In this document: positions 1,590-63,956 of the stretch, one piece after another
Layout: every line of letters starts with the position of its first letter
Position numbering within the stretch: position 1 is the stretch's first letter
NCBI GenBank assembly: GCA_030603565.1
Contig: JAUVXM010000006.1
Coordinates: forward strand, 607 to 64,606
Source: Candidatus Aminicenantes bacterium
GTDB lineage: Bacteria > Acidobacteriota > Aminicenantia > Aminicenantales > Aminicenantaceae
Length of the DNA stretch: 64,000 bases
Reading direction: 5' to 3'
Notes under the pieces: model-generated
Seen by the model: the letters and a program-made list of their open reading frames with translations, nothing else
The model's database searches: none
What the model was told of the DNA's origin: nothing
Program-made: the position numbers and the translations under genes

Positions 1590-1743
1590 GCCTGGACACT
1601 GGTAAATCCCGGAGAAAGCCATCCGGAACAACGCGGGCATGGTTCCTCGAGAGAATCTCGAGGAGAGCGTTGTGAGGACAGGAAGGGATTTTCCGGCTGG
1701 GGGAAATTCCTGTCTTTCGTAGGGAATTACCCGTATTCAGGCC
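1590..1743 (+). repeat. Family-A structured intergenic element, copy 1 (more diverged). A conserved 3' tail extends to about 1787.
   Basis: About 90% identical to 38001-38155 and 63346-63500. Terminal inverted repeats GCCTGGACACTGGTAA...TTACCCGTATTCAGGC. Internal hairpins CCTCGAGAGAATCTCGAGG and GGGATTTTCCggctGGGGGAAATTCC. Confidence 0.8.
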
Positions 1744-1949
1744 TAACAAATCATGTAAGTTAAAAAAAATTGGGGCGGCTCCATATGTTTATTTCATTGA
1801 CAGATAAGTTTAGAGAAATTATATTTTAGGAATAATGAAACGGATTAACAGCCGGGAAAGTATATACAGATAAGACTGTATGATAATTCTGAAGGCTATC
1901 TATCGTCTATATAAAAAAGGTCATTTCGAGTGACCATAGGTAAAGGACA

Positions 1950-4900
1950 ATGAAAATTACAGAAATCTCTGCTAAGCGGCCGGTTACGACTTTTATGTTT
2001 TTTATTGCTATTGTACTTTTGGGGTTTGTCTCACTTAAAGAGCTGAGTGTCGACCTGCTGCCTGATATCAGTTACCCGCGCCTGTCTGTGGTTACTCAAT
2101 ACGCAGGAGTGGCTCCAGAGGAAATAGAAGCACTTATCACTGAACCCCTGGAAGCGGCTGTGAGCCGGATTCCGGGGATGCGAAGGGTAGAGTCTATATC
2201 CAAAGAAGGTGTTTCCTATATGACCCTGGAATTTGCCTGGGGAACGGATATGGATTTTGCTATGCTGCATACACGGGAGAAGCTCGACAGTGTTCAGCTT
2301 TCAGATGATGTGGAGGATCCCACTATCATCCCGCTTGACCCGCAGAGTAAACCTATAATGATCATGTCTGTATCTGGCTCCAGGTCATTACTTGAGCTTA
2401 AAGAATTTTCTGAAGAATTAGTCAAACCCCGCCTGGAACAGATTGAAGGGATCGGCTCAGCAGAGATCGCAGGAGGAGTGGAGCGCGAGATCCATATCGA
2501 AGTCGATCCTCAATATATGTCTCTTTACGGACTTACTGTTGAACAGATATCACAGAGAATCGATGCTTTCAACCGTAATCTGCAGGGTGGAACTATCCGG
2601 AAAGGGCGGTTTAAATATGCCCTCAGGGTTGTGGGAGAGTTTGAGGCGGTTAATGAGATAGGGGAGATAAGTTTGAAGACAACTGCTGAGCGGGGAGTAG
2701 TGAGGCTTAAAGATGTGGCTGAGATCAAGGATTCCATTAAGGAAAGAGAAGGAATAACCAGGCTCAGCGGAAAAGAAAGTATTGGAATTTTGGTCAGAAA
2801 GGAGTCAGGAGCAAATACGGTTAAAGTAACCCAGGCAGCAAAAGAAGTGCTGGGGGAGATTAAAGCAGAAAATCCGGAGACAAACATCCTGATCGTATCC
2901 GAACAAGCTAAATACATAAACAATGCCATATCATCTGTTTTAAATGCAATTATACTGGGTGGTATTCTGGCATTTGTGATCTTGACCATATTTCTTCAGG
3001 ATTTCAAAACCCCTCTGATCATTGCATCGGTTATTCCTATCTCTATCATTGCAACTTTTAATCTGCTTTATTTCCGGGGTATCACTCTGAATATTATGTC
3101 TTTGGGAGGGCTTGCCCTCGGGGTAGGAATGCTGGTAGACAATTCGATCGTAGTTTCGGAAAGTGTTTTCCGGCACAGAGGCCTGGGTAAGAGTTTTTTA
3201 GATGCAGCAGTCACAGGAACCAGAGAAGTGGGCATGGCGGTTACTGCTTCGACCTTAACTACCATATCGGTATTCCTGCCGGTTATTTATGTGCATGGTG
3301 TAGCCGGACAATTATTTAAAGACCAGGCCCTTACAATAACCTTTGCTCTTTTATCTTCTCTCATTGTCTCCCTCACACTTCTTCCTATGCTGGCGTCGAG
3401 GAAATTTGATATCAGGACAAAAAAGGCTGAAAAACCTTTCAAGGAAACAGAAGATTCCAAGCGGATAAAAGCACGAAAAAAGTCAATCGCTGGAATTTTG
3501 CTTTTTCCCTTCAGAGGTATTCGCTGGCTATTGTATAATATTCCAAAAGGGCTTTATTTAGTTCTTAATTTTATCTTTAGTTTTTTTTCACAGCTTTTTC
3601 TTTTACTCTTCCATTATATAAGCCTGCCCTTCAAACCTGTTATAAGGGTTGTATTTGAAGCTCATAACCGGCTTTATAACAGATTTTCCCTACGCTACCA
3701 TCAGGCGCTTATCTGGTGTCTTGATAGTAAGGGAAAAGTCCTGTCTGGTTCAGTACTTATTCTGGCGCTAACGATTTTTGTCGCTACTTTTATCCCCAGA
3801 GAACTCATGCCGAAACCTGAGGTGTCAGCCTTTGACGTTAATATAAAGACACCGGTGGATTATTCCCTGGAGCAGACATCGGATATCGTATTTATATTGG
3901 AGAACTGGCTGAGCTCGCAGGATTCAGTTAAAGATTCTTTTTCCCAGATTGGCATTGTTAGCGGAATGGAGGGTTTGAATCCGGATATTTCGCTTAATTC
4001 CGCCAAGCTTTATGTTGAGGTAAAAGAATCCCCGGAAGTTGAGGGATTGATAAAAGGTTTGAGAGAAAGACTGCAGCGGTTCCCCGGCCTGACATATTCA
4101 ATAGTCAGGGAACAATCAACACTTTCCCAGTTTATGGCTTTTTCAACTGCAGAAATCGGTTTGAAAATAAAAGGAAATGAACTTAACCGGCTGAATATTT
4201 TAGCCGAACAGCTGAAAGAGAAATTGCGTGATATTGATGGACTGGCTGATATTGGTTCAAATACTGGGGAGGGCAAGCCGGAATTCAGGGTTAAAATAAA
4301 GAAAGAAGCCTTGGAAAAGTATAATATTTCTCCGGCAGCCATCAGTGACTTTTTGGTGGATGCAGTGAGGGGAAAAATTGCTACCCAGTTTAATGAGATG
4401 GAGAAAAAGTATGATGTGCTTGTCCGGCTGGAAGAGGATACCAGGGAGAATATTGAATCGCTCCTAAATGAACAGATGCCGCATGGAAAAACACTTATTC
4501 CCTTGAGAGAATTGATCTCATATGAGGTTGTCAGAGGGCCGAAAGAAATTCGGAGGGAAAGCCAGCAGCGGGAGGTTCTGGTTACCGCCAACCTGAAAGG
4601 AGTTAAGATCAGTCAGGTGGCACCTGAGATAAGAGAGAAGATCGATGAACTGGAATTGCCTGCAGGTTATCGGGTTGTATTCAGTGGCGAACAAGAGGAA
4701 ATGGAGAAATCCTTCCGCAGTCTTTTATTTGCGTTTTCACTTGCGGTCCTGCTGGTGTATATGACAATGGCAGCCCAGTTTGAATCTTTACTGCATCCCT
4801 TTTTGATTTTATTTACCCTGCCGATGGGATTGATAGGAGCTGTATGGGCACTTCTGGTCACCGGGCAGACTTTTAACGTGATTTCTATCATCGGGATAGT

Positions 4901-12904: not shown

Positions 12905-13058
12905 AAAATTTATTCTCCTAAATTAACTCATCAGCCTAAGCTGATAAATATAATTACATTGTTAACCTAAAAATGTCAATAAAGCGTTAACCAGGAGCCC
13001 CCCCATTTTTTCTAAGCATCTGGACCTTAAGCAAGAATCAGGAAAATATAAAGAAAAA

Positions 13059-13346
13059 TAGAATTTTACGCTGAGGACACTGAGGACACGGATAAATGCT
13101 AGAAAACTTTAGACACGGATTTACGCGGATCTTCGCGGATAAAACTAAGATGTTGTTTTCTTTTGCCGATGAATCGTCAAAACAAAACAACCCTTCATCA
13201 CTTTGCTTCGCGAAGTAAGTTGAACTAAAGGTTTGCATTTTGTGCTCCAGCACAAATTGGAAAGAGCTTTTTGTTTTTTGGATACAAGCCAAAAAAGAAA
13301 AAGCTTCTGACTCTTATCCGTGTCAATCAGCGTCTATCCGTGTCTA
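13059..13346 (+). repeat. Family-B repeat, copy 1. Shared core 13059-13218, bounded by inverted repeats GACACGGATA / TATCCGTGTC.
   Basis: About 85% identical over roughly 160 nt to 36118-36267. Contains a conserved 19-bp hairpin at 13153-13191. GACACGGAT occurs twice at the 5' side, and TATCCGTGTC occurs twice at 13315-13344. Confidence 0.75.
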
Positions 13347-13481
13347 ATATTGCTTTTATAATATTTAGATTTTACTGCCTTTCCTATTTTCCACTATCTT
13401 TTTTCCCTCTGACCTGATTTTTTCCTGAGGCAGAAAAGTATAGAAAAAATTGGCCAATTACTGTAAATTTATATCAGTAGA

Positions 13482-17750: not shown

Positions 17751-17828
17751 TTCCCAATTGACCTGATTCTTGCTTATAGCTCAGATGCTTATATAAAATT
17801 GGGGGAACTCTAGGTATTTTCCGCTTGA

Positions 17829-35155: not shown

Positions 35156-35194
35156 CTTGAACTATTCATAAAAAATGTCGCTACATATAATATA
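35156..35194 (-). promoter_or_regulatory. Conserved intergenic motif (family C), site a, 22 nt upstream of the AKR start codon
   Basis: The minus strand reads GCGACATTTTTTATGAATAGTTCAAG. This matches the consensus shared by seven sites. Confidence 0.4.
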
Positions 35195-35999: not shown

Positions 36000-36117
36000 G
36001 TTTTCTCCTCTTCCGGGGACTATCCCCAGACTTAGAGCAATCTCGTTATAATGTTAGCATATTTAGCATAGGTAATTCCACCCTTCCTAAATTTAATGGA
36101 GTCTGACCATTTTTTTT

Positions 36118-36267
36118 AGAATTTTACATTGAGGACGCTGAGGACATGGATAAATGCAAGAAAATATTAGACACAGATTTACGCGGATAAAAAAAAGATG
36201 TTATTTTGTTTTGCCGATGAATCGTCAAAACAAAATAACCATTCATCACTTCGCTCCGCGAAGTAAC
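36118..36267 (+). repeat. Family-B repeat, copy 2 (core only; no 3' inverted repeat)
   Basis: About 85% identical to 13059-13218. The hairpin at 36200-36239 shows compensatory changes relative to copy 1. Confidence 0.75.
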
Positions 36268-36308
36268 CGGTTTTTCCACTTTCTGTTTTCCATTTACCGT
36301 ACTTTTGC

Positions 36309-37910
36309 TTGAATTTACCTGTAGGGATAGATAAAATGATTTTGATGAAATTTGTAAGTGTGTTTAATGATGTGATGGGTCCGGTAATGCGGGGGCCTTC
36401 AAGTTCGCATACTGCTGGTTCTTATCGGATTGGATGTATGGCTCGTTCCCTGCTTGGGAAAGTGCCGGAAGCAGCGAGATTTACCTTTGATCCGGGGGGC
36501 TCTTATGCTCAAGTTTATCGGCAGCAGGGAGTGGACCTGGCTTTTGCCGCAGGAATTTTAGGCTGGGAATTAACAGATGAAAGGTTCTTTTCGGCCTTAG
36601 AAGAGGCGAAAAAGCAAAAAATCAAGATTGAATTCAGAGTTGCTCCTTTGCCTGGTTCTTTTCATCCCAATGCCGTTAAAATAAATTTATCCCCTAAGCA
36701 AGGAGTAGAACTGGAAATATCCGCCAAATCGACCGGAGGAGGGGGGATGCTTATTGATCAGATCGGAAGATGGCAGGTGGCTTTAGACGGGAAAACCTAT
36801 TTCTTTTTGATTGAATGTAAAGGGAGGGCAGAATCCCAAGTTAGAGAGATATTATCAACCGTAAAGGGGAGATATTACGAGAAAGGCAGAATTACAGAAG
36901 GTAAAAAGTCATTACTTATATTTCAAGGAGTAGATGATTTGGAGCCGGAGATCTATGCTAAATTAAAAAGAATACCGGAAGTTAAAAGAACATGGAAGAG
37001 TGAGCCGGTATTTTATATGCAGCGGGGTGAGCCTATTTTCCAAAATTATAAGGCTATGGTCCAGATAATAAAGGAGTTGAATTGTTCTCTGGGAGAGGCC
37101 ATCCTTAAATATGAGTCTCAGTTGTTGGGAATTGACAGAGAGGGGATTATCAAAAAGATGTTGGAGCGTTTTGCGGTAATGAAAGCAGCTGTTGAGCAAG
37201 GATTGGAATTAAAAAATATCGATATGCAGCTGCTTAGCCCTAGTGCAGGAAAAATATTAAAGGCTGAAGCGGAAGAAAGAGTAGCAATTGGAGGGATTCA
37301 TACTCAAGCAGCTGCCCGGGCTATGGCAGTAATGCATATAAATAACAGCATGGGAATTGTATGTGCAGCTCCAACCGGCGGGTCAGCCGGGGTGATCCCT
37401 GGTGTAATGATCACTTTGCTGGAAGAAAAAAAGCTTAAACCGGAAGAGATTGCCCTATCATTACTGGCTGCTTCCGGAATAGGATTGCTGATAGCTATCC
37501 AAGCCACTTTTGCCGCGGAAGTTGCAGGCTGCCAAGTAGAGATCGGGGCCGCAGGGGCAATGGCAGCCGCTGCTGTAGTTGAAGCGTGTAGAGGCTGTGC
37601 CAGGGATGCTTTGGATGCAGCTGCTATTGCACTTCAGAATACTATGGGTTCTGTGTGTGACTTGGTCCAGGGAATGTGTGAAATTCCCTGTCACACACGT
37701 AATGCAGCGGCAGCATCGAATGCATTTGTCTGTGCTGACCTTATTATGGGAGGGTATAAAAATCCAATCCCTCTGGATGAGACAATTGATGCGGCTTATT
37801 CCGCCGGCAAAATGCTTCCCAGGGAACTAAGATGCACTGCCCTAGGCGGCTTAGCCCAAACCCCCACAGCTCTGAAGCTAAAAAAACAGGAAGATAGCCC
37901 CGCTACTTAG
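36309..37910 (+). CDS. sdaA: L-serine dehydratase, iron-sulfur-dependent (fused beta-alpha)
   Basis: 533 aa. The N-terminal block SVFNDVMGPVMRGPSSSHTAG is characteristic of L-serine dehydratase. Cysteine-containing alpha-domain motifs follow. Confidence 0.6.
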   Translation: MNLPVGIDKMILMKFVSVFNDVMGPVMRGPSSSHTAGSYRIGCMARSLLGKVPEAARFTFDPGGSYAQVYRQQGVDLAFAAGILGWELTDERFFSALEEAKKQKIKIEFRVAPLPGSFHPNAVKINLSPKQGVELEISAKSTGGGGMLIDQIGRWQVALDGKTYFFLIECKGRAESQVREILSTVKGRYYEKGRITEGKKSLLIFQGVDDLEPEIYAKLKRIPEVKRTWKSEPVFYMQRGEPIFQNYKAMVQIIKELNCSLGEAILKYESQLLGIDREGIIKKMLERFAVMKAAVEQGLELKNIDMQLLSPSAGKILKAEAEERVAIGGIHTQAAARAMAVMHINNSMGIVCAAPTGGSAGVIPGVMITLLEEKKLKPEEIALSLLAASGIGLLIAIQATFAAEVAGCQVEIGAAGAMAAAAVVEACRGCARDALDAAAIALQNTMGSVCDLVQGMCEIPCHTRNAAAASNAFVCADLIMGGYKNPIPLDETIDAAYSAGKMLPRELRCTALGGLAQTPTALKLKKQEDSPAT

Positions 37911-38000: not shown

Positions 38001-38155
38001 GGCATGGATACTGGTAAATCCCGGAGAAAGCCATCCGGAGCAACGCGGGCATGGTTCCTCGAGAGAATCTCGAGGAGAGCGTTATGAGGACAGGAAGGGA
38101 TTTCCCCGCTGGGGAAAATCCCTGTCTTTCGAAGGGACTTACCAGTATCCAGGCC
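38001..38155 (+). repeat. Family-A structured intergenic element, copy 2. The conserved 3' tail extends to about 38200.
   Basis: Terminal inverted repeats GGCATGGATACTGGTAA...TTACCAGTATCCAGGCC. The internal hairpins match those of copies 1 and 3. Confidence 0.8.
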
Positions 38156-38286
38156 TTACATCTCTTGTAAGTTTAAAAAATTGGGGAAACTCCAAATCTA
38201 TATTCTTCTTGATATTTTTCAATTACTTGATATTATTTGTAGCGATATTTTTAGTGCATAATTCATGATAATCGAGGAGGAATCAT

Positions 38287-42392: not shown

Positions 42393-42444
42393 TATAAAAA
42401 AATGTCGATATTTATGATACTTAGAAAATTTAGAATAGTAAAGC
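42393..42444 (-). promoter_or_regulatory. Conserved intergenic motif (family C), extended version, site b, upstream of the M16 peptidase operon
   Basis: The minus strand reads CTTTACTATTCTAAATTTTCTAAGTATCATAAATATCGACATTTTTTTATAC. About 85% identical over 50 nt to 63564-63615. Confidence 0.4.
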
Positions 42445-42534: not shown

Positions 42535-43992
42535 ATGAGTGATAAGCGAAATGTTAAAATCCTAGTTGTGGATGATAAAGAAAACATCCGCAAATCTCTA
42601 AAAATGATCCTCGAATACGAAGGCAACACATTTCTTGAGGCTGCTGATGGAGAAGAAGCCCTTGAAATAATAGATGAGACAGTAGGTTTGGATTTGATTC
42701 TTCTGGATATTCAGCTTCCAGGGATGGATGGCCTGGAAGTGCTATCAGAGTTGAAAAAAAAGCCTTATTCACCGGAAGTAATCATGATCTCCGGACATGG
42801 AACGGTCCAAACTGCAGTAGAGGCAACTAAATTAGGCGCTTTTGACTTTATTGAAAAGCCTCTCCACCGGGAAAGAGTATTACTGAGTATCCAACATGCC
42901 TTAAATCAGAAACGATTAGAACGCGAATGTAAGGACTTACGTAAAAAAGCAGAAAAAAAATATCATCTTATAGGTAACCACCCTTTGATGAAAAAGCTCT
43001 GGGAGCAGATATTAAAGACAGCTCCTACTAATGCTACGATATTTATTTTTGGAGAAAGCGGTACTGGAAAAGAGCTGATCGCCAGGGCCATACATGAAAA
43101 CAGCTCCCGGAAAAATGAAGCATTTATTCAAGTAAATTGTGCTGCTATTCCGGAAGAGCTTATTGAAAGCGAGCTTTTCGGACATATTAGAGGGGCCTTC
43201 ACTGGAGCAACGGAAAAGAAAAAAGGGAAGTTCGAACTAGCAGATGGCGGTAGCATATTTCTCGATGAGATCGGTGATATGAGTTTAAAGACTCAGGCCA
43301 AAGTTTTGCGAGTTCTAGAAGAAGGAGAAGTGCAGAAGGTAGGGTCAAGCAAAACAGGAAAAGTAGATGTAAGAGTAATAGCGGCAACTAATAAGAATTT
43401 GAAAACAGAAATTAAGGAAGGGAATTTTCGTGAGGATCTATATTTCCGCCTGAATGTTGTGCCTTTGAATTCCCCTCCGCTGAGAGAAAAAAAAGAAGAC
43501 ATCCCTATTCTGATCGATTATTTCAATAAGAATTTTGTGAAGGAAAATAATTTTAGAGAAAAAAAATTCTCTGAAGATATAATTGAAGCTATGGTAAAAT
43601 ATCCCTGGAAAGGAAATGTGCGGGAGTTAAAAAATATTGTTGAGAGGATTATTATTATGACTGATTCTGATACAATAGCAAAAAAAGACCTTCCCAAGCA
43701 GATCAAAGGAGAAGCTAACGTATATTTTCCTGAGGCTGACAAGGTGAAAAGCCTGAAGGTATTCCGAGATTTGGCGGAGAAAGAGTTTATTTTAGCCAAG
43801 CTGGAGGAATGTGACTGGAATATATCCCAGACAGCAAGAGAGATCGAAACTCCCCGCAGTAATCTTTATAAAAAATTAGAACAATTTGGCATAAAAATAA
43901 AGGCTGGAGCGGGCAAGGTGGTTGCTCCTTCTTCTCGTAATAAGAATGGAGGGGAGGAAAGTCCGGACTCTATAGGGCAGGATGGTCGCTAA
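42535..43992 (+). CDS. Sigma-54-dependent response regulator (NtrC family)
   Basis: 485 aa. REC domain (phospho-acceptor D), AAA+ sigma54-activator domain ([14 protein letters not shown]) and a C-terminal Fis-type HTH. The last ~30 codons overlap rnpB. Confidence 0.85.
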
Positions 43993-44287
43993 CAGCGACT
44001 CCGGGCGACCGGAGGAAAGTGCCACAGAAAACACACCGCCCTGTGCGGACTGCGTTTAAGCTGCCGCGCGGAGTAAGGGTGAAATGGTGAGGTAAGAGCT
44101 CACCGCCTTGATGGTGACATCAGGGGCAGGGTAAACCCCATCCAGAGCAAGACCAAATCGGACCCTGTTGAGGCTGCTCGTCTCGGGGCGGGTAGGTCGC
44201 TAAACCTCTTGAGAAATCAAGGGGTCAGATAAATAACCACCCCTGCTTTTATAAGGAACAGAATCCGGCTTACGTCCCACTCCAGCC
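43902..44287 (+). ncRNA. rnpB: RNase P RNA, bacterial type A
   Basis: Block matches to E. coli M1 RNA include GGAGGAAAGTCCGG.CTC.ATAGGGCAG, GTAAGGGTGAAA.GGTG.GGTAAGAGC.CACC, GGTAAAC.CCA.CC.GAGCAAG.CCAAAT.GG and ACAGAA.CCGGCTTA. P1 pairing GGCTGGAGCGGG / CCCACTCCAGCC. Length about 386 nt. Confidence 0.9.
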
Positions 44288-44295
44288 AAAAAAAT

Positions 44296-44349
44296 GGGGA
44301 CAGGGTACTTTTTTTACTTCGGAAAAAAGTACCCTGTCCCCATTTTTTT
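44296..44349. terminator. Bidirectional rho-independent terminator (rnpB on plus, nuoN on minus)
   Basis: GGGGACAGGGTACTTTTTTtacttcgGAAAAAAGTACCCTGTCCCC, flanked by an A-run at 5' and a T-run at 3'. Confidence 0.8.
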
Positions 44350-55276: not shown

Positions 55277-56734
55277 CTACTTTTTCTTCCCTTTAATAGT
55301 TATTGTAGCAGGCAAATTAAAAGTTGTGCCGTCGCTGAGATTTCCAGTGACATAAATTGTAGGGCTATCTCCGTTTTTCGGATTAGAGATAATTGAGATT
55401 GCTTTGCTTTGCGAAAATTTAGCTATATAGGTGAATCCTCCGATCTCGTAATCATCAGGTTGAACTGATCCACCTGGTCCCACCATACACAGAGAGCTAT
55501 AGATGATATCTTCAAATCCTTCCCCTTTTATTCGTGCTATCACTTCACCATCACCATTTTCTGCCCAGGCTGTATTCCATTTAGTTGGCTTTATTTCTAA
55601 GGTTAACAGACCTTGGCCGAATTTCTTTCCCGAAATCGTAATCGTATCCCACACCTCAAAAGGAGTTCCCCTACTAAGATTTCCGGTTACGAGAATTGTA
55701 CAATTGTCGCCCCGTTTTGGATCAAGAATCAGGCCAATCGCATCACTTTGGTTGAATTTTGTAACGAAAGACACACCACCGAATTCATAGCTGTCTGGAA
55801 TCGGACTGATTGAAGGTAATCCATCATCTGGATATGCCATCTGAACAGTCGTAGGATCTATATCTTGAAAGCCTTCTCCGCTGATTCGGGCTGTCACTAC
55901 ATTTTCGCTATCATTGTCGCCTTCATCATTTACCCAGGCAATGTTCCACTTTTTAGGCCGTATCACCAAAGACAAATCCCCTCCTAGATATTTCTTACCA
56001 ACAACAATTATATTTGCAATTGGGGGATCAAATTCTGTTCCATCATTAAACTGGCCCATGACTTGAATATCGTAAGATTCTCCTCGCTGCGGCTCAGGGA
56101 TTATTCCGATAGCTTCGATTTTCAGGAATTTGGCAACAAAAGAATACGGTCCAACTTGTGCCTTAGATGGAGCACCTGTTTCTGCCCCCTCAGGACCGAC
56201 CATTCTTAAAGTCTCTGGGTTTATCTCTTCAAATCCTTCTCCGCTGATACGCACCGTGACCAAGCCCATGCTATTTGCCCAATTTATGTTCCACTTAAAT
56301 GGCTTTATCCGCACTCGGAGTTCCTGGGTTATCTCATTATTTTTTTTACTCCCTCTGGAAGGCCCCTTATTAATCCCAGCTTTTTGGTTCAATTTAGGAT
56401 TATGACTTGCCGTGACGCTATTAACAGTAGCATTGGAAACTTCATTTCCAGTGCTCGCTTCGGCGGCTTGATCAACGGATGCCACATGACTGGTTCGAGA
56501 TTTTCCTTTAAAATCAGGTTTTTGCCTCTGATAGCTACCTTTTTCCTCGCTTTTCGCAGATATAGAACCATTACTATAAGAACTTGTTGAAGCGACACTT
56601 CCTGTATTCACAACCTCACTTGATTGTTCCTCAACATCAGCGGCGGGAGTGAAGGGATTTCCGTCTTTATTACAGCTAATAGACAAGAACGAAAGCATAA
56701 AAATACAGGTTAGCACAATAACTTTAGTTTTCAT
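55277..56734 (-). CDS. Lipoprotein with an S/N-rich linker and three tandem ~110-aa repeats
   Basis: 485 aa. Lipobox LSISC. Repeats start IKPFKWNINWAN / IRPKKWNIAWVN / IKPTKWNTAWAE and each contains SGEGF(E/Q)DI...G(F/Y)...AKF..S.AIG.I..PK.GD...I.V.GN...GT.F. Confidence 0.6.
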   Translation of the reverse strand: MKTKVIVLTCIFMLSFLSISCNKDGNPFTPAADVEEQSSEVVNTGSVASTSSYSNGSISAKSEEKGSYQRQKPDFKGKSRTSHVASVDQAAEASTGNEVSNATVNSVTASHNPKLNQKAGINKGPSRGSKKNNEITQELRVRIKPFKWNINWANSMGLVTVRISGEGFEEINPETLRMVGPEGAETGAPSKAQVGPYSFVAKFLKIEAIGIIPEPQRGESYDIQVMGQFNDGTEFDPPIANIIVVGKKYLGGDLSLVIRPKKWNIAWVNDEGDNDSENVVTARISGEGFQDIDPTTVQMAYPDDGLPSISPIPDSYEFGGVSFVTKFNQSDAIGLILDPKRGDNCTILVTGNLSRGTPFEVWDTITISGKKFGQGLLTLEIKPTKWNTAWAENGDGEVIARIKGEGFEDIIYSSLCMVGPGGSVQPDDYEIGGFTYIAKFSQSKAISIISNPKNGDSPTIYVTGNLSDGTTFNLPATITIKGKKK

Positions 56735-56942: not shown

Positions 56943-56979
56943 CCTGAACTATTCATAAAAAATCTCGATGTTTATGATA
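56943..56979 (-). promoter_or_regulatory. Conserved intergenic motif (family C), site d, about 200 nt upstream of the repeat-lipoprotein gene
   Basis: The minus strand reads ATCATAAACATCGAGATTTTTTATGAATAGTTCAGG. Confidence 0.35.
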
Positions 56980-58645: not shown

Positions 58646-58683
58646 GTATCATACATATCAACATTTTTTTTGAATAGTTCAGG
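58646..58683 (+). promoter_or_regulatory. Conserved intergenic motif (family C), site e, 22 nt upstream of the aldolase start
   Basis: GTATCATACATATCAACATTTTTTTTGAATAGTTCAGG. Confidence 0.4.
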
Positions 58684-63345: not shown

Positions 63346-63500
63346 GACATGGATACTGGTAAATCCCGCAGAAAGCCATCCGGAACAACGCGGGCATGGT
63401 TCCTCGAGAAAATCTCGAGGAGAGCGTTGTGAGGACAGGAAGGGATTTCCCGGCCGGGGGAAATCCCTGTCTTTCGCAGGGACTTACCAGTATCCATGCC
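63346..63500 (+). repeat. Family-A structured intergenic element, copy 3
   Basis: Perfect 15-bp terminal inverted repeats CATGGATACTGGTAA / TTACCAGTATCCATG. Internal hairpin GGGATTTCCCggccGGGGGAAATCCC. Confidence 0.8.
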
Positions 63501-63563
63501 GGCTCTTTCCGACCCAGCTTCCCATTTGCTACAAGCAAAGACACACCTGAATTTCATCTTAAC

Positions 63564-63624
63564 ATTTACTATTTAAAATTTTCTAAGTATCATACATATA
63601 GACATTTTTTATAAATAGTTCAGG
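63564..63624 (+). promoter_or_regulatory. Conserved intergenic motif (family C), extended version, site f
   Basis: ATTTACTATTTAAAATTTTCTAAGTATCATACATATAGACATTTTTTATAAATAGTTCAGG. Confidence 0.4.
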
Positions 63625-63927: not shown

Positions 63928-63956
63928 TCATACATATAGACATTTTTTATGAATAA
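63928..63956 (+). promoter_or_regulatory. Conserved intergenic motif (family C), site g, running into the RBS of the last gene
   Basis: TTCATACATATAGACATTTTTTATGAATAATAAAGGAG. Preceded by CACACCTGAATTTCAT, which is also present at 63542. Confidence 0.4.

Follow-up and report, generated by a model that had tools for sequence, protein, structure and literature searches.

A probable non-autonomous palindromic repeat in intergenic regions of one Candidatus Aminicenantes genus

We analysed a stretch of 64,000 nucleotides from a Candidatus Aminicenantes bacterium (hereafter the window) and characterised a repeated intergenic element that it carries. The element is probably, with a likelihood that we would put at roughly 0.6, a non-coding, palindromic, non-autonomous repeat of the REPIN/BIME/MITE kind, found in one Aminicenantes genus and having no specific role in serine or threonine metabolism. 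It lies between unrelated genes and is most likely an ordinary kind of selfish mobile DNA, and the best-supported reading of the family is that it is low in copy number and ageing or decaying. The basic unit consists of phased GAC(A/G)CGGAT repeats, a 19-bp A+T-rich hairpin and a 7-bp hairpin, and the intact element contains two such units, inverted round a short spacer and bounded by outer inverted modules of the form TTTTAC(CTGAGGACRC)1-2. The stems covary, the genes around the copies are unrelated, the site between thrC and tadA is polymorphic, and three copies have decayed independently.

The two copies in the window (13059–13218 and 36117–36266) showed an identity of about 84–89%. A repeat search paired 13059–13130 with 36117–36188 (89%) and 13123–13218 with 36171–36266 (88%), and BLASTN aligned copy 1 with copy 2 at 83.8% identity over 160 nt with a 10-nt gap. 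The central 20-mer TTTGCCGATGAATCGTCAAA and the 25-mer TTCATCACTTNGCTNCGCGAAGTAA from the 3′ part each occur exactly twice, where about 0 occurrences are expected by chance. These searches and counts bear out the two look-alike copies that a preliminary description of this DNA had placed here, and the neighbouring genes that it had named, threonine synthase, a TadA-type deaminase, an SDR protein and serine dehydratase, were likewise correct.

Collections of genome, metagenome and viral contigs were then scanned with the central 20-mer. Three of the five matches in genome contigs were real (loci L001, L003 and L005), all of them from the MAG Candidatus Aminicenantes bacterium CSMAG_2434, as were two of the four in metagenome contigs (L006 and L008). 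The remaining loci were rejected as copies, L002 and L004 being chance 22–23-mer matches only and L007 and L009 chance matches only, and the viral contigs gave no match to the 20-mer. BLASTN against the fetched loci detected a further, diverged copy at L001 1600–1740, and this copy is found in CSMAG_2434 in addition to the three exact matches. The window and most of the fetched loci were also searched with nhmmer and with covariance models, and no additional copies emerged. Homologues of ThrC provided further loci, of which L010–L012 are from the same strain, L013 is from a second strain, and L014 and L015 are from relatives (ThrC 95% and 92% identical, respectively). The next ThrC homologue is merely 63% identical, indicating that the lineage is thinly sampled, and exact-protein look-ups with SDR, SdaA and TadA found no more strains on record. 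Two Logan short-read contigs of the same strain, L011 and L012, end at their position 1 inside the element, in the h1 loop and at TTTTACG, as assemblies are expected to do at a repeat. The copies occupy the following sites:

Site 1, window copy 1 and L013: thrC ← element → tadA
Site 2, window copy 2, L005 and L008: SDR ← element → sdaA
Site 3, L003 and L006: GTPase ← element → gyrB
Site 4, L001a: lacZ-like → element → hypothetical
Site 5, L001b: sulfatase ← element → hypothetical

The location is intergenic at all five sites, with divergent flanking genes at four, and the left unit is kept in 9/9 copies. A preference for genes of Ser/Thr/Gly metabolism, which the two window copies had made worth looking for elsewhere, did not appear; the other copies instead adjoin GTPase and gyrB, lacZ-like and hypothetical, and sulfatase and hypothetical genes. 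The hypothetical genes 3′ of the L001 copies were considered as cargo or transposase and rejected, being unrelated to each other and matching no family.

The full element is about 350 nt in length (13059–13405) and forms a single large imperfect palindrome, its right half being an inverted and diverged version of its left half. Each half contains three GAC(A/G)CGGAT repeats phased at 10 bp and two hairpins, one long and A+T-rich, the other short. The order of parts in copy 1 is terminal module, three phased repeats, h1, h1b, spacer, h2, h3, three inverted repeats and tail, and the features of both window copies are as follows:

13059–13405, + strand: copy 1, full-length doublet (two inverted units and tail), aligned by BLASTN to L005 (13059–13393) and L008 (13059–13389)
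13064–13094, + strand: terminal module, TTTTAC and then two CTGAGGACAC units (a single one in strain L013)
13112–13145, + strand: three direct repeats nnC(A/G)CGGATn at a spacing of exactly 10 bp (CGGAT at 13116, 13126 and 13136)
13152–13191, + strand: hairpin h1, 19-bp A+T-rich stem, four pairs changed on both sides
13200–13216, + strand: hairpin h1b, 7-bp stem ACTTYGC / GCRAAGT, 100% of cells paired
13236–13259, + strand: hairpin h2, inverted counterpart of h1b (covariance model R1 matches 13236–13308 on the opposite strand)
13265–13305, + strand: hairpin h3, inverted counterpart of h1 (self-complementary BLAST match; model R1 on the − strand)
13314–13344, + strand: phased repeats in inverted orientation at the 10-bp spacing, ATCCGTGTC at 13316 and 13336 on either side of a degenerate unit
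13345–13405, + strand: tail, AATATTGYTTTTATAAT, ATTTTAC and then pyrimidine-rich TTTTCCAC, common to L005, L008, L001a, L001b and copy 2
36117–36266, + strand: copy 2, singlet with the left unit only (h1 at 36200–36239, h1b at 36248–36264)
36267–36300, + strand: kept tail of copy 2 (CGGTTTTTCCACTTTCTGTTTTCCATTTACC), directly 3′ of an internal deletion

The number of phased repeat units varies from two to three depending on the copy. The terminal module is found inverted at the far end of L001a (L001 5193–5207) and also, in degenerate form, in L003. The sequence TTTTACRCTGAGGAC, which L001a carries at its left end and, inverted, at its right end (degenerate in L003), is thus a true terminal inverted repeat, and the outer module of the right end has been lost from window copy 1. 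The inverted repeats GACACGGATA / TATCCGTGTC of the preliminary description were both recovered in copy 1; a search allowing one mismatch located GACACGGATA on the + strand at 13085, and with one mismatch at 13112, and on the − strand at 13315–13324 and 13335–13344. The end of the element had been set too early, at 13346 (about 290 bp), since homology with paralogous copies reaches about 13393–13405. At the GTPase/gyrB site the usual left terminal module is replaced by a run of GGGATTA-like heptamers:

L003 about 2995–3030 and L006 about 250–290, − strand: heptamer run GGGATTAGGGATTATGGGATAGGGATTATGGGG

Comparison of relatives showed that occupancy differs at one of the sites. The spacer between thrC and tadA measures 577 nt in the window, where the element is present as it is in L013, and 270 nt in L014, which is missing the block equivalent to window 13005–13410 and has about 100 nt of other sequence instead. 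Upstream of thrC in L015 lies a different repeat, the 185-nt Family A, 94% identical to window 63348–63451. The thrC–tadA spacer therefore switches its repeat content among close relatives. Sites 2 and 3, on the other hand, are occupied in every genome sampled despite 10–14% coding divergence there. Two of the five insertions are thus shared by two or three genomes that far apart, and must be old.

Decay of individual copies was evident. Copy 2 had been described as cut at its 3′ end; instead, about 155 nt that its full-length orthologues L005 and L008 possess have been deleted from its interior, so that h2, h3 and the right repeats are gone and the pyrimidine-rich tail is kept. The right unit is also missing from L001b and L006. 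The end points of the deletions in these three copies differ, which makes them three independent events, and in L006 a short direct repeat, GCTTT, lies at the junction. In L001a about 90 nt have been inserted, and L013 differs from the window in its short repeats, with one CTGAGGACAC unit in place of two and two CGGAT repeats in place of three. The short forms (singlets) are decayed long forms. A MITE or the remnant of an IS end was among the identities first suggested, and it is this suggestion that gains support, from the unrelated neighbours, the polymorphism at thrC/tadA, the inverted terminal modules and the threefold independent decay. Further copies that follow no particular gene, as would be anticipated for a MITE, were indeed found, but the target-site duplications anticipated with them were not, and the copy number is seemingly low.

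We used alignment and covariance modelling to examine the two-fold symmetry. When the right unit was reverse-complemented, the left unit aligned with it over some 80 nt at a score of 47, compared to 14 ± 2 for shuffled sequences. Model R1, which was built from h1 and h1b alone, matched the opposite strand of every long copy over its full length with 19–31 bits (window copy 1 at 13236–13308 on the − strand, 25.7 bits; L003, 31.4 bits; L001, 29.6 bits; L013, 27.8 bits; L005, 27.5 bits; L008, 19.4 bits). This symmetry makes two folds possible, namely a long hairpin that closes a multi-branch junction, or a clover of four local hairpins. As read from the sequence, the central C·C of h1 and G·G of h3 become C-G pairs in the long-hairpin fold.

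The 19-bp stem of h1, noted earlier as a hairpin, is real but is not perfect in copy 1, where C·C and C·T mismatches leave 17 of the 19 pairs. In copy 2, 18 of 19 are paired and the C·C mismatch is repaired to G-C, and the compensatory change from G-C to A-U reported between the two copies stands (alignment columns 9/42). Nine copies were aligned and the 25 pairs of h1 and h1b were tested for covariation against 500 shuffles and slid controls. Bases were paired in 93.7% of cells, and five pairs had changed on both sides, compared to 0.6 in shuffles and 0 in slid controls, with 0/500 shuffles reaching five. In h1 of L001b, three double changes and the repair of a mismatch resulted in a perfect 19-bp stem, and in h1b one pair had changed on both sides (L001a) and G·U intermediates were seen twice. 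Similar behaviour was seen in the right unit, since GTGC/GCAC of h2 is GGGC/GCCC in L003, and each arm of h3 has become one base shorter in L013. While the stems varied, the single-stranded flanks (GGATAAAAC... and ...CCTTCATCAC) remained constant.

One-sided changes in h1 and h1b yielded G·U (G·T) on the + strand in four out of four cases, and the variant hairpins were usually more stable on the + than on the − strand. Together these observations indicate that one particular strand folds, either as RNA or as single-stranded DNA, and the G·T pattern fits a single-stranded DNA intermediate and a transcript equally well. GC skew is positive throughout the window, so that the + strand is the G-rich one; the same holds at the L003 site, and L001 is uninformative. 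This placement of the + strand is only suggestive. The core of h1 and h1b differed between orthologous pairs at 16/286 positions, compared to 65/597 for flanking intergenic DNA outside the element. This roughly two-fold slower divergence, of which there is no sign at the thrC/tadA site, could reflect either function and selection at the level of the host or gene conversion. The retention of the left unit in nine copies, its slower divergence and the G·T bias of the + strand are the grounds on which the left unit might be regarded as a functional, strand-specific folded module, that is, a new structured RNA or the substrate of an undescribed single-strand DNA enzyme, but we consider this unlikely.

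The same data bear on two alternatives to a mobile repeat, both of them improbable in our judgement. One is a structured RNA, transcribed from the + strand and acting as an sRNA or as a stabilising or processing element in a UTR, as some transcribed palindromic repeats are reported to do. Covarying stems, the G·U character of the one-sided changes and the greater stability of variant hairpins on the + strand are all properties that such an RNA would have, and the + strand of the whole element has a predicted fold of −102.6 kcal/mol (z = −6.2 compared to shuffled sequence). However, the − strand folds equally well (z = −7.3), and half of the structure has been deleted independently three times. 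The + strand points to the downstream gene at every site, but this co-orientation is automatic in divergent intergenic regions and hence carries no weight. Neither window copy contains promoter-like or terminator-like sites, and the predicted promoters of the genes lie downstream or face away. Rfam yielded no family at gathering or permissive thresholds, the best score being 22.7 bits, for a microRNA model with a cut-off of 70. With no promoter or terminator inside the element and no Rfam match, nothing spoke for the sRNA that had been listed among the first suggestions. A coding peptide was rejected as well, since no reading frame is kept among the copies and L001b has no open stretch longer than 35 codons.

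The promoter predictions are also central to the other alternative. That for thrC runs from 12979 to 12950 on the − strand and that for sdaA occupies 36309–36337 on the + strand, with the element upstream of it; since both lie outside the element, the window copies occupy the gap between divergent promoters. A domesticated DNA module could operate from this position if a protein, such as a regulator or a nucleoid protein, bound its phased repeats along a single face of the helix, with the palindromes serving as extra binding sites or cruciform sites. The spacing of exactly 10 bp, the divergent arrangement at four of five sites, the presence of the left unit in every copy and the slower change of its core compared to the flanks would suit such a module. 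It is difficult to reconcile, however, with neighbouring genes that share no function, with the missing element at thrC/tadA in so close a relative as L014, or with a number of repeat units that varies even between strains, and covarying stems are not expected of a site that is read as double-stranded sequence.

The predicted sdaA promoter itself comprises TTGAAT, a 17-nt spacer and TAAAAT ending at 36337. Its end overlaps the first in-frame ATG (36336) and is 8 nt before the next (36345), and the first ATG of sdaA reads ATA in L005. This arrangement suggests that the sdaA mRNA may be leaderless or have a very short leader.

A shared operator or attenuator coordinating the Ser/Thr genes thrC and sdaA, as the preliminary description had envisaged because such a gene adjoins both window copies, is effectively refuted, given the unrelated genes at three further sites, the orientation of copy 1 towards tadA and away from thrC, the thrC/tadA region of L014 that has no element and the thrC of L015 that is preceded by a different repeat, and flanking predicted promoters that lie outside the element, which is upstream of the sdaA promoter and not in the leader.

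We also looked for an enzyme and for traces of insertion that would accompany a mobile repeat. There was no transposase or RAYT gene among the annotated neighbours of the copies. No autonomous partner with matching ends was found, the end motif being confined, within the window and the fetched loci, to the copies themselves, and a scan of viral contigs with the end motif returned a single unrelated 18-mer match in four related phage contigs. A target-site duplication could not be delimited. The flanks of L001a do not match, L014 does not offer a clean empty site, and the ATTTTAC that stands in direct orientation at the two ends of copy 1 belongs to the element itself. Other identities were considered and rejected. 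The repeats are not a cluster of DnaA boxes, since by eye they deviate from TTATCCACA at 2–3 of 9 positions in most copies, and neither a reverse transcriptase gene nor an array structure was observed that would point to a retron, an integron attC or a CRISPR. A search of the literature on MITEs in Aminicenantes found nothing relevant.

Classical bacterial MITEs, such as Correia/NEMIS of Neisseria and RUP of pneumococcus, resemble the element in being small, non-coding, multi-copy and intergenic, with terminal inverted repeats, presence or absence between relatives and a strong predicted fold. Unlike them, the present element has neither a defined target-site duplication nor an identified parent IS with matching ends, and its inverted symmetry spans the whole element, beyond the tips. 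BOX elements of Streptococcus pneumoniae, which are present in >100 copies per genome, share with it a modular build, a variable number of internal sub-repeats, complementary end modules, stable stem-loops and an uncertain mobilising enzyme; the modules differ, however, and there is no sequence similarity. The ends of IS200/IS605 are not inverted repeats. PATEs derived from IS200/IS605 nevertheless have hairpins with conserved single-stranded flanks and strand-specific variation of the stems, as seen here, and at the three sites that are informative the + strand of the element is likewise the G-rich one, the template for lagging-strand synthesis. In contrast to PATEs, the element has inverted ends, and its surroundings showed neither a Y1 transposase gene nor a TnpB gene.

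The closest parallels are with REPINs, which are inverted doublets with compensatory changes and alternative hairpin and clover folds, and whose singlets are defunct remnants (PMC3116915). Like REPINs and BIMEs, the element is extragenic, has two palindromic units inverted round a spacer and able to form one long hairpin, shows compensatory stem changes, alternative long-hairpin and clover folds and singlets that are decayed remnants, and forms mosaics with other short motifs. It differs in that the unit is about 75–130 nt and contains 10-bp-phased direct repeats, compared to 20–40 nt for REPINs, in that no conserved GTAG-type motif was seen, and in a copy number that is apparently low, compared to tens to hundreds per genome. 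We have not filed it as a REPIN because of the much longer unit, the apparently low copy number and the absence of RAYT from the annotated neighbours.

If the element is a non-autonomous repeat, a trans-acting enzyme would have copied it into intergenic sites where it was harmless. This enzyme may have recognised the folded single strand, the phased repeats or both, which would account for the compensatory changes in the stems and the constant single-stranded flanks. Decay would then have followed two routes, with slippage altering the number of short repeats, and deletions taking out one arm of the palindrome to leave singlets such as copy 2; the changes themselves are seen in the copies, and these causes are those that we think probable. 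To our knowledge, no REP/RAYT-like system has been described in this candidate phylum, and discovery of a cognate enzyme would extend REPIN-like systems to Aminicenantes. The analysis removes the false lead of a shared Ser/Thr regulatory element, and brings to light a seemingly undescribed family of repeats in an uncultured phylum, which is useful for annotation and explains contig breaks in MAG assemblies. It also offers a small, clean example of palindromic-repeat stems that are maintained with a strand bias.

A number of other features were observed in the window. The Family A repeat is about 185 nt long, with inverted arms of 33–40 nt (GGCATGGATACTGGTAAATCCC...) around an inner palindrome, is present in three window copies, and gave no match in Rfam (best 16 bits). 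A third short module (CCTGATTCTTGCTTA..CAGATGCTTA...AAAATTGGGG) lies inverted on both sides of copy 1 and recurs directly after tRNA-Ser(GGA), and a related AAAAAATTGGGG..CTCC motif follows Family A copies. An A+T-rich intergenic motif, TATTCATAAAAAATGTCRATAT, often placed after TTGAAC, has at least five copies on both strands where 0 are expected, and looks like a shared promoter or regulator site. Their positions are as follows:

Window 1590–1774, 38002–38186 and 63347–63531; L015 42–145 (94% identity, upstream of thrC): Family A
13013–13042 (− strand), 17762–17791 (+ strand) and, weaker, 13411–13460 (+ strand): third short module
1764–1793 and 38175–38204: AAAAAATTGGGG..CTCC motif after Family A copies
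35163–35184, 56950–56971, 58655–58676, 63596–63617 and 63934–63955; also near 42397, at L001 about 1810–1850 and at the start of L015: TATTCATAAAAAATGTCRATAT motif
44288–44314 / 44323–44349: perfect 27-bp palindrome after RNase P RNA

The last of these follows immediately upon the RNase P RNA (class A, 298 bits; region 43906–44349) and is presumably its terminator. Finally, an ORF on the − strand at 55277–56734 (485 aa) contains three diverged direct repeats within 55493–56309, spaced about 354–369 nt apart, which suggests that its predicted product has repeated domains of about 120 aa.
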